Shown in pieces: positions 2,510 through 36,599 of a stretch of DNA of 64,000 nt (positions are counted from its first letter, which is position 1; each line of letters starts with the position of its first letter). Source of the stretch: Octopus vulgaris (Eukaryota); NCBI GenBank assembly GCA_951406725.2, contig OX597827.1:62062001-62126000 (forward strand), read 5' to 3'. The notes under the pieces were generated by a model. The model did no database searches. It had not been told where the DNA came from and saw nothing but the letters and a program-made list of their open reading frames with translations. Made by a program: the position numbers and the translations under genes.

Positions 2510-3037
2510 TCAGAGGCGGCACAAAGCCTGAAACTTTGGAGGAAGAGCTCAGTCGGTTTCCAACCACGGCGACAATTAAACTTAGAATATATTGAGCCAA
2601 AAGAAATGCCGCTAAGCATTTTCTTTGGCTCCGTAACGGCATTTCTTGAACCATTTCTATCGTCAACACCATTATTAATTTTCGTACAAGACCTGCAGCT
2701 TTGAAGGGAAGAGAAGTCGATTACGTCAACCCCAGAGCTCAACTGGTATTTATTCAATAGACTATGTAAGGATGAAAGGCGAATTCAACTTCGGCAATAT
2801 TTGAACTCAGAATGTACAGAGAAGGAAGAAAGGCCACCGAATATTTTGTTTAGCGCCGTAGCGGCATTTCTTTCGGTGTCAATATTTCTTTCTATGTTAT
2901 TTTTTACTATAGGAATAAAGACTGAAATTTTGGGGCGCTTTTCGATTACATCGACACCAGTTCTCAACTGGTGCTTATTTTGTCGATTCGGAGAAAAAGA
3001 TGACAAAGTCAACCTCCGCGAAATTTGAACTCAGAAC
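2510..3037 (-). mobile_element. Degenerate S2 SINE copies, inverted
   Basis: Repeated GGATGAAAGGC...TTTGAACTCAGAA motifs, the reverse complement of the S2 core and B box. Confidence 0.65.
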
Positions 3038-3113
<76 letters not shown>

Positions 3114-3117
<4 letters not shown>

Positions 3118-3503
3118 TGACGTATATCTGCCATTTGAATATGGCTAACCCCTAAGGGTGGATGCTACTGTAGTTTGTAGCCCCAGGAAGACACCTCCTC
3201 CAGCTGGCTATAGACACACTTTCTGTGCCCTATCAGTATCTGTGAAGGGAAGTCATCCTTCCCGTCTTCAACTTATGATACACACGGACTCGAGTTTCAA
3301 GGTATTGACCTATCATCGGCGTGTGACAATCATAGTTGTCGACGAGAAGTCAGTTCCCCTCACAAATACATATACTTTTTCCAGTATCGATTGACACTGA
3401 TATTGAAAAAGTGAAATCAAACAATGATAAATCTCAGAGCGAGTTATAAACAGTAGCGGCAACACATCGTGACGTATATTTGCCATTTGAATATGGCTAA
3501 CCC
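3114..3503 (-). mobile_element. Retrozyme-like element A: 352-nt unit plus 38-nt terminal direct repeat, containing a hammerhead ribozyme
   Basis: ATCGTGACGTATAT(C/T)TGCCATTTGAATATGGCTAACCC at 3114-3151 and 3466-3503 (period 352); flanked by TA; internal HHR and long stems. Confidence 0.8.
3281..3325 (-). ncRNA. Type I hammerhead ribozyme, U4C core variant
   Basis: Minus strand CACACG-CCGAUGA-U-AGGU(CAAU)ACCU-U-GAAAC-UCGA-GUC-CGUGUG: 6-bp helix I, 4-bp helix II, palindromic helix III (ACUCGAGU), GUC site. Confidence 0.85.
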
Positions 3504-3749
3504 TATATGACTGAAGCATATAAAAGAATAAAAAAATACAGTAAAATTGAATAGGAGTAGAGCTAGCTAAGACCAATGCGCCCCCTCCTACATCCTGGAT
3601 TACTCCCATTCCAGTGTTTTTTTTTGTTCAGTTTCTTCATTAAGATTTAAAGTACTCTGTTGGTATTAAGAATGAAAAAGAATTGAAAATATGATTAAGG
3701 CAGAAGAGTTATCATAAAGGAATGTTAAGTGAGGCACGCAAAAAATTGT

Positions 3750-35910: not shown

Positions 35911-36183
35911 TTCAATTTCATTTCCTCTACAGCCCTCCATATATATATATATGAATAGAAATATTAACATTTCTAAATCTCTCTAAAGGAGACTACGTCA
36001 CCGGTACTGGATATTAATACTTATCGCCAAGCTAATATGGCCGTCCAGGAAAATAGGACGAATGCTACCGTTGATTAGCTCCAAGAGCCCATCGCCTCTA
36101 GCTAGCTATGTGACACACAAACCTGTGTCCATTATAACCTTCGAACAGGAGAAGTCAACAGCTTCCCCTTCATGGTTTGAAAA

Positions 36184-36224
36184 CCACAGACTAGTTTCGG
36201 AGTAGTTGCCCCTTATGAATGTGG
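36184..36224 (-). ncRNA. Minimal hammerhead, U3-A8 variant with additional G5C
   Basis: Minus strand CCACA-UUCAUAA-GGGG(CAACUA)CUCC-GAAAC-UA-GUC-UGUGG. Confidence 0.75.
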
Positions 36225-36491
36225 AGTAGCCGAACCCAACAGGTGTCGCTGCTGACCGTCTGTTCGAAGGATTATTTACCTAAATTCAGTGGAATACACC
36301 CATTGGTTTTCTAAAATAGAAATATTAGCATTTCTAAATCTCTCTAAAAGAGACTAAGACAGCGGTACTGGATATTAATAATTATCGCCAAGCTAACATG
36401 GCAGTCTAGGAAAATAGGACGAATGCTGCCGTTGATTAGCTCCAAGACGCCATCGCCTCTAGCAAGCTATGTGACACATTGATAAGCTACT

Positions 36492-36532
36492 CCACATTGA
36501 TAAGGGGCAACTACCCCGAAACTAGTCTGTTG
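36492..36532 (+). ncRNA. Minimal hammerhead, U3-A8 covariant core
   Basis: CCACA-UUGAUAA-GGGG(CAACUA)CCCC-GAAAC-UA-GUC-UGUUG; palindromic ACUAGU helix III. Confidence 0.82.
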
Positions 36533-36599
36533 AATGTCAAACCAGCAAGGTGAAACTGCCGACCTTCCCTGTTCGAAGGTTATAATGGTCACAGCAGTC

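Follow-up and report, generated by a model that had tools for sequence, protein, structure and literature searches.

At 3114..3503 of the window, the stretch of 64,000 nucleotides of Octopus vulgaris DNA analysed here (contig OX597827.1, positions 62,062,001 to 62,126,000), lies a 390-bp insertion made of a 352-nt unit and 38 nt of a second turn. What is this element, and how was its RNA copied into DNA? An earlier note had described it as the integrated copy of a viroid-like circular RNA, reverse transcribed for just over one turn from an arbitrary point. We describe it as a high-copy non-coding repeat with a hammerhead, likely inserted by a Penelope-like protein with reverse transcriptase (RT) and GIY-YIG domains acting on uncut, probably circular, unit RNA.

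The Insertion in the Window

The features of the locus are listed in Table 1, where A and B are the two start sites of the family described below. The unit and its overhang were found as proposed, the 38-nt direct repeat (3114-3151 and 3466-3503) having a spacing of 352 and an identity of 37/38. The earlier placement of the insertion inside TA sequence holds for the left flank, a (TA)37.5 run, and not for the right one, where just five TA letters stand inside the probable target-site duplication (TSD). What precedes the TA run is found again at the right junction, probably as an 11-bp duplication with microhomology; the first 8 letters of its left copy are also those of unit positions 34-41 and form the microhomology at the truncated end. 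Window 2930-3037, in the left flank, resembles what we take to be a truncated SINE of a type repeated elsewhere in the window. The unit has a GC content of 0.43 and no long frame, the longest stop-free stretch in RNA sense being 67 codons.

Table 1. Features of the insertion, in window positions.
Feature	Position	Strand	Remark
Left copy of the probable target-site duplication	3035..3045	+	11 nt; putative duplication
(TA)37.5 run	3041..3115		Between left duplication copy and primed element end
Start site A as used in this insertion	3114..3117	-	RNA-sense 3' end, first cDNA letters
Full non-coding unit	3114..3465	-	352 nt; RNA is the minus strand
Strand of 8-bp long-range helix	3164..3171	-	Pairs with 3450-3457; encloses site A in tandem or circular RNA
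Interrupted rod	3236..3369	-	Extends hammerhead helix I
Type I hammerhead motif	3281..3325	-	Predicted cut between 3287 and 3286
Start site B (unit 307-310)	3420..3423	-	Lies inside this copy; RNA distance from site A 43-46 nt in the 3' direction
Partner strand of 8-bp long-range helix	3450..3457	-	Pairs with 3164-3171
Second turn	3466..3503	-	38 nt, continuing the first without a seam; end variable (5' truncation)
Right copy of the probable target-site duplication	3499..3508	+	One C fewer; overlaps truncated element end; putative duplication

The stretch between sites A and B is best read as a Penelope-type tail, a term reportedly defined in a review of 2005. Across the family, purines and U alternate in the RNA just 3' of site A (window 3454-3467), and G.T wobbles could let it anneal to a (TA)n primer. 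Another repeat, a distant relative of the unit (profile E 8e-15), was seen at window 35953-36594, with a period of about 361 nt, an inverted arm and a hammerhead-like motif whose core, judged by eye, is a U3/A8 variant and which failed the motif scan.

The Hammerhead and the RNA Fold

The minus-strand hammerhead claimed earlier was confirmed as type I, running from 3325 to 3281. Its helix I is CACACG/CGUGUG (3325-3320 and 3286-3281) and its core CCGAUGA (3319-3313), non-canonical in the window copy in that U4 is C (U4C). Helix II (AGGU/ACCU, within 3311-3300) is closed by a U.U mismatch at its base, GAAA follows at 3298-3295, and helix III has 2 bp and a palindromic loop. The predicted cut falls at unit 174|173. 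This hammerhead was the sole match of a loose motif scan of the whole window on both strands, so that no plus-strand hammerhead passed it, and in Rfam no hammerhead matched at the gathering score or among the 12 matches at E<=10. A viroid variant with U4C was described as weak in vitro and functional in vivo (PMC3088659).

All seven segments of the rod that had been named were found at their places, and the circular folding proposed as a check gave -123.4 kcal/mol for the minus-strand unit (z -6.6 against 60 dinucleotide shuffles). The plus strand is also stable as a circle (z -6.1, again against 60 dinucleotide shuffles). A viroid-type rod was not recovered: the RNA is branched, with one rod arm of 134 nt and 62-64% of positions paired. 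Nor does the helix 3164-3171/3450-3457 depend on a circular or tandem RNA as had been thought, since it forms at a probability of about 1.0 in the linear unit. The active hammerhead fold of the window copy costs 5 kcal/mol. After cleavage the rod would keep the two ends of a monomer, 5' and 3', side by side.

Among 18 hand-picked diverse copies, whose relatedness inflates the control, 14 of the 46 rod pairs showed two-sided change, 93% of cells paired, none of 500 shuffles scored as high and the score also exceeded all slid controls. Across copies the hammerhead core, helix II and the rod are maintained with compensatory changes. An alternative long-range helix suggested by RNAalifold on 20 whole units was rejected, being partly a misalignment of the distal rod and having a probability of 0 in the window unit.

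A Large Family of Non-Coding Units

The genome searched comprises 2.8 Gb in 227 contigs. BLAST of the unit returned 2,562 candidates, the best 40 of which were scored and showed 95-98% identity. A 20-mer just 3' of the cut had 1,189 exact genome matches and a 20-mer specific to the window's group had 168; the difference between these counts, on the two sides of the cut, was considered as a pile-up of ends and rejected, as it is subfamily variation. The window copy is thus one member of a large non-coding family and not a lone viroid-like insert. In older subfamilies, at 73-87% identity, the unit has the same length and copies begin at the same two sites.

In the commonest subfamily, which supplied 33 of the 49 cores parsed from 60 consecutive matches, the core is canonical and helix II is 5 bp long. 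Departures amount to 0.75% in this subfamily (5 loci) versus 1.9% and 2.4% in the other two classes, and it looks the youngest. U4C is a subfamily trait, present in 55 of 120 segments of an enriched sample and in 5 of 49 of an unbiased one.

Insertions or arrays hold one to nine units, including arrays of 5-9 units. The six units of one array (L092) differ by two private changes. A nine-unit array without TA flanks (L296:400-3550; G000:C2:14086000-14089900) has variants common to non-adjacent or alternate units, in a two-unit pattern, and a more diverged terminal unit, which suggests later duplication or a mixed template. In L012/L014 and L093 a whole insertion recurs at a distance of 6-8 kb, by segmental duplication or as an assembly repeat.

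Contigs from four probable RNA runs cover the unit with uneven depth, and strand, ends, circles and expression level are unreadable in contigs. The flank of an older truncated copy with a 9-10 bp duplication (L201:1530-1795) is present in contigs of three probable RNA runs, likely by read-through transcription. Three loose-end motifs from RNA contigs were followed as leads and dropped: one had no genome match, one was the flank of a single locus, and the third, taken as a lead to an RT gene, led to older subfamilies instead.

Two Fixed Start Sites

From 100 loci (the 30 best BLAST matches and 70 among the first 100 of the 168 exact matches) 89 distinct insertions were mapped; 11 loci were left out as repeats of the same insertion or segmental duplicates, as were the second copy of L093 and a stray match in L032. 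These insertions have 143 arms, and 133 of the arms start at unit 1-11 or 301-314. Site A accounts for 74 (61 exactly at unit 1) and site B for 59 (34 at 310, 12 at 307), while the remaining ten, mostly decayed or interrupted, start elsewhere. Copies usually begin beside (TA)n. The opposite ends of the arms are scattered, so that only the far end varies.

The arbitrary permutation point on which the earlier reading relied is refuted by these two sites, and the argument for circularity drawn from it fails because the start points are fixed. The same note had held that copies with fixed ends would speak against it; we found fixed positions at one end of the arms and variable ones at the other. 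Single arms made up 35 of the 89 insertions (26 from A, 9 from B). Unit position 3 often has another letter in terminal than in internal copies, and the true first letter therefore varies between 1 and 4.

No LTR was seen, and the TSD exceeds 4 bp where present. At non-TA targets, duplications of 9-14 bp flank four insertions (L022, L063, L065, L083), to be set beside the probable 11 bp of the window. An automatic TSD search gave candidates for 12 of the 89 insertions, most of them TA noise, and missed that of the window. Primed ends have longer TA runs than truncated ones (35 versus 35 ends, p 0.008), and some of this TA sequence may therefore be gained during insertion or later.

One Start Site per Target Strand

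Two head-to-head arms were present in 54 of the 89 insertions. Their starts were A/B in 43, A/A in one and B/B in none, and ten had one unclassifiable start. Nine further two-armed insertions, taken from a different list, were A/B in all eight classifiable cases, with one unclassifiable. A/B pairing thus holds in 51 of 52 classifiable insertions, against a coin toss with a binomial p of about 1e-14. At the junction of the arms, 29 of 54 insertions overlap by at least 2 letters and 18 carry extra letters.

In 47 loci, 28 of 687 polymorphic cells disagree between the arms of one insertion, where comparison with other loci would predict 229, and rare alleles common to both arms occur at 1.26 per 1000 columns versus 0.08 between different loci, a 15-fold excess. 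Alleles seen in 3-5 loci were concordant within an insertion only about half the time, a figure confounded by recurrent mutation. The arms are of one haplotype and therefore come from one RNA, or from RNAs of one source. The pattern is one start site per target strand and one RNA haplotype per insertion.

Penelope-Like Elements of the Same Genome

A search with a GIY-YIG profile returned 6,136 candidates in at least nine sequence groups; the best 150 were scored. Two young Penelope-like families have frames of 775 and 781 aa with RT and GIY-YIG matches and a CxxxxCxxC linker, which is given for Neptune and Nematis and tied there to (TA)n targets (PMC8557442). In both families copies terminate next to (TA)n, at two sites some 30-35 nt from each other. 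A hammerhead motif, again with U4C, precedes the first end of the 775-aa family by 139 nt. Two-armed insertions of Penelope-like elements with both ends read were A/B in 6 of 6 cases (L142, L188, L189, L191, L196, L197); L192 and L199, each with one end unmatched, stand outside this count. Since the unit has two fixed ends and a tail as these autonomous elements do, we read it as a non-LTR retrozyme, probably copied by Penelope-type target-primed reverse transcription.

No Penelope element similar in sequence to the unit was found among the 100 loci searched with blastn and an nhmmer profile (L101-L200), where the only matches were separate retrozyme copies. One of these, in L142, was considered as a Penelope terminal repeat and rejected, being a separate insertion 600 nt beyond the end of that element.

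The 775-aa family (L181-L200, e.g. L185:2808-6406, G000:C13) is very young, with about 1,984 candidates near 100% identical. Its unit of about 4.27 kb has an upstream 454-aa frame without a Pfam match before the RT-GIY-YIG frame, and an (AT)7 run inside the element directly after the tail. The 781-aa family (L131-L141) has an upstream frame of up to 479 aa, ends about 35 nt apart and, near its end, a hammerhead-like stretch whose core is non-canonical by eye.

The Template and Competing Explanations

Stops at unit 168-178 numbered 2 against 4.3 expected, in a sample ascertained on the core and leaving out the interrupted L076 and L064, which is cut off. Of 60 consecutive matches in the unbiased set that reach 168, 58 run past 178, and 56 of 142 arms are longer than one unit with seamless junctions. 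As the cDNA runs through the cut site and stops do not pile up there, the template was uncut and a cleaved linear monomer is excluded. The earlier view of a retrozyme-like element copied for just over one turn through the cut is thereby supported, apart from its argument for circularity.

We judge the chance that the template was a circle, as against an uncleaved tandem transcript, to be somewhat better than even. A circle is the likeliest source of the seamless multi-turn copies and of the absence of stops at the cut site, and the near-identical units of L092, the rod that would clamp the monomer ends and the circles shown in other animals (PMC7229834) speak for it as well. The alternative is the same A/B priming by a Penelope protein on a linear tandem transcript, with arrays regrowing by duplication at the DNA level and the hammerhead dispensable for copying. 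In vitro, the lizard protein indeed worked chiefly on unprocessed RNA (PMC11167929), and arrays of 5-9 units are available as possible sources. U4C subfamilies have spread, as have L204 and L211, two older copies with the same broken helix I; together with the U4C and U.U of the window copy, they indicate that copies may spread without cleavage. A single monomer circle would also not give the variants common to non-adjacent units of L296, whose two-unit pattern fits a tandem template. Against this, each linear round should lose at least the last start site and so erode the period, yet a seamless period of about 352 nt persists across subfamilies 25% apart, which would favour a circle. The core, helix II and rod are retained with compensatory changes, the youngest and commonest subfamily has the canonical core, and in 6 of 59 comparisons a private allele is present in both turns of one arm. 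We hold the linear tandem to be the less likely template and give it about three chances in ten.

Other explanations are far less probable. The inverted arm might stem from a single cDNA or an antisense template that folds back and primes itself, in place of a second priming on RNA, as was proposed for rotifer Penelope elements (PMC3846280); junctions often share letters, some using the self-complementarity of the rod, and one arm is contained in the other in 26 of 43 A/B insertions. In the other 17, neither arm is contained in the other, so that each was primed on RNA and fold-back is excluded there, and nothing in fold-back would make the second arm end exactly at the other start site; we consider it very unlikely. 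About equally improbable is that the unit is the terminal repeat of an unseen autonomous Penelope-like element and its copies are 5'-truncated pieces. Retrozymes do resemble Penelope termini in frogs (10.64898/2026.07.22.740005), and just the best 150 of the GIY-YIG candidates were scored; on the other side, arms make up to nine turns by re-entering their own unit, alignments to the unit show none of the 89 mapped insertions continuing into other shared sequence, the unit is without a long frame, and the L142 match beside an RT gene is a separate insertion. Least credible of all is the capture, at random permutation points, of a viroid-like circle that was infectious and replicated itself: the size, the hammerhead and the stable fold on both strands would suit it, and the fixed starts, the branched fold, the ribozyme in one polarity only and the long vertical history of subfamilies in one genome do not. 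The term viroid-like was therefore overstated, with a one-polarity ribozyme and no sign of RNA-RNA replication in the material analysed.

On the preferred reading, copying by a Penelope-type protein from an uncut and probably circular RNA, tandem copies would be transcribed and the predicted hammerhead would cut out monomers. The ribozyme would form best in the commonest subfamily, probably aided by dimer pairing of the palindromic helix III, and the rod would hold both monomer ends together for ligation. The Penelope protein would make staggered nicks some 9-12 bp apart in AT-rich DNA, (TA)n in most cases, and cDNA would be primed inside the RNA at site A or site B, as the ends of the copies suggest. 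It would then pass the hammerhead cut site and the unit junction, as the copies themselves do, and stop at scattered places. Where both strands are extended, one would start from A and the other from B on RNA of one haplotype, which is the pattern seen, and the two cDNA ends may join head to head, often via short microhomology. Where one strand is extended, the cDNA end would anneal to the other target end; the window copy would accordingly have started at A, run 1.1 turns and joined via an 8-nt match to the target.

A more speculative proposal, to which we are inclined to give less than an even chance, is that a dimer of the Penelope protein binds a single circular retrozyme RNA at two points separated by 43 nt and primes the two target strands simultaneously, each strand using one of the points, while the two polymerases travel round that one circle; the insertions might then be a fossil record that explains the Penelope tail and inverted ends. 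With the lizard Penelope in vitro, both target strands were nicked and extended and a dimer was predicted, two internal start sites bound the tail, and ribozyme cleavage was not required (PMC11167929). Start sites were alike between strands in bulk, pairing within one insertion lying outside that study as far as its available text goes. The tail at one inverted end of Penelope elements has been described qualitatively (PMC3846280, PMC8557442).

Comparison with Known Systems

Hammerhead viroids (Avsunviroidae) carry ribozymes in both polarities and replicate from RNA to RNA without a DNA form. The octopus unit is like them in size, hammerhead and high self-pairing, and differs in having a ribozyme in one polarity, more than 1,000 genomic units and a signature of DNA integration.

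Retrozymes of the non-LTR kind are recognised as non-coding units of 150-450 nt with a GC content below 50% and a type I hammerhead motif in each, dispersed as monomers to tandem multimers, and the octopus unit fits this description. The metazoan non-LTR retrozymes of coral, mussel and axolotl (Rtz, 330-353 nt) are likewise non-coding units of about 350 nt with a GC content of 43% and a type I hammerhead, present as monomers to multimers with TSDs of more than 4 bp, and the axolotl HHR_Amex2 likewise has a 2-bp helix III with a tetraloop and a U.U at the base of helix II (PMC7229834). Animal retrozymes yield circles, and circles and cleavage were shown there, whereas the octopus unit is known from sequence and predicted structure; in contrast to it, fixed start sites, a tail and inverted arms go unreported in the available text of that paper (PMC7229834). 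The word octopus has no occurrence in the main text of Cervera and de la Pena 2020 (PMC7229834), and a literature search in which subscription journals were thinly covered found no cephalopod retrozyme, no fixed retrozyme start sites and no strict two-site pairing. The octopus element is a new non-LTR retrozyme, and its A/B rule of one site per strand is the interesting part.

A link between retrozymes and Penelope has already been proposed (PMC7229834; 10.64898/2026.07.22.740005). Li, Clavereau and Pollet 2026 propose the same dependence of non-LTR retrozymes on Penelope machinery from co-occurrence and sequence similarity in vertebrates, while in octopus the basis is the shape of the insertions, with no homologous partner among 100 Penelope loci (10.64898/2026.07.22.740005). 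How animal retrozymes move, and where the Penelope tail and inverted ends come from, are stated as open questions in the field (PMC7229834, PMC8557442, PMC11167929). A full Penelope insertion signature on a 352-nt non-coding element links both by insertion shape and not by co-occurrence, and a countable rule of one site per strand makes the open mechanism testable in the published in vitro system, where the unit offers a minimal template, linear or circular, for the intact young Penelope genes of the same genome. An RT that starts inside a circular RNA without target homology would also be of interest to builders of RNA-templated insertion tools.

The closest likeness is to Penelope-like elements with GIY-YIG, such as Poseidon of Anolis and those of rotifers (PMC11167929, PMC3846280, PMC8557442). 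These likewise have two internal start sites and a tail, AT-rich or (TA)n targets, 5' truncation and partial tandems, head-to-head inverted arms with the tail at one end, a TSD of about 9-10 bp, and a hammerhead upstream of the start sites. The tail is 43-46 nt in the octopus unit versus 30-40 in those elements. Unlike them, the unit has no RT or GIY-YIG coding capacity, its cut site lies 173 nt upstream of site A, and the whole element is one permutable unit.
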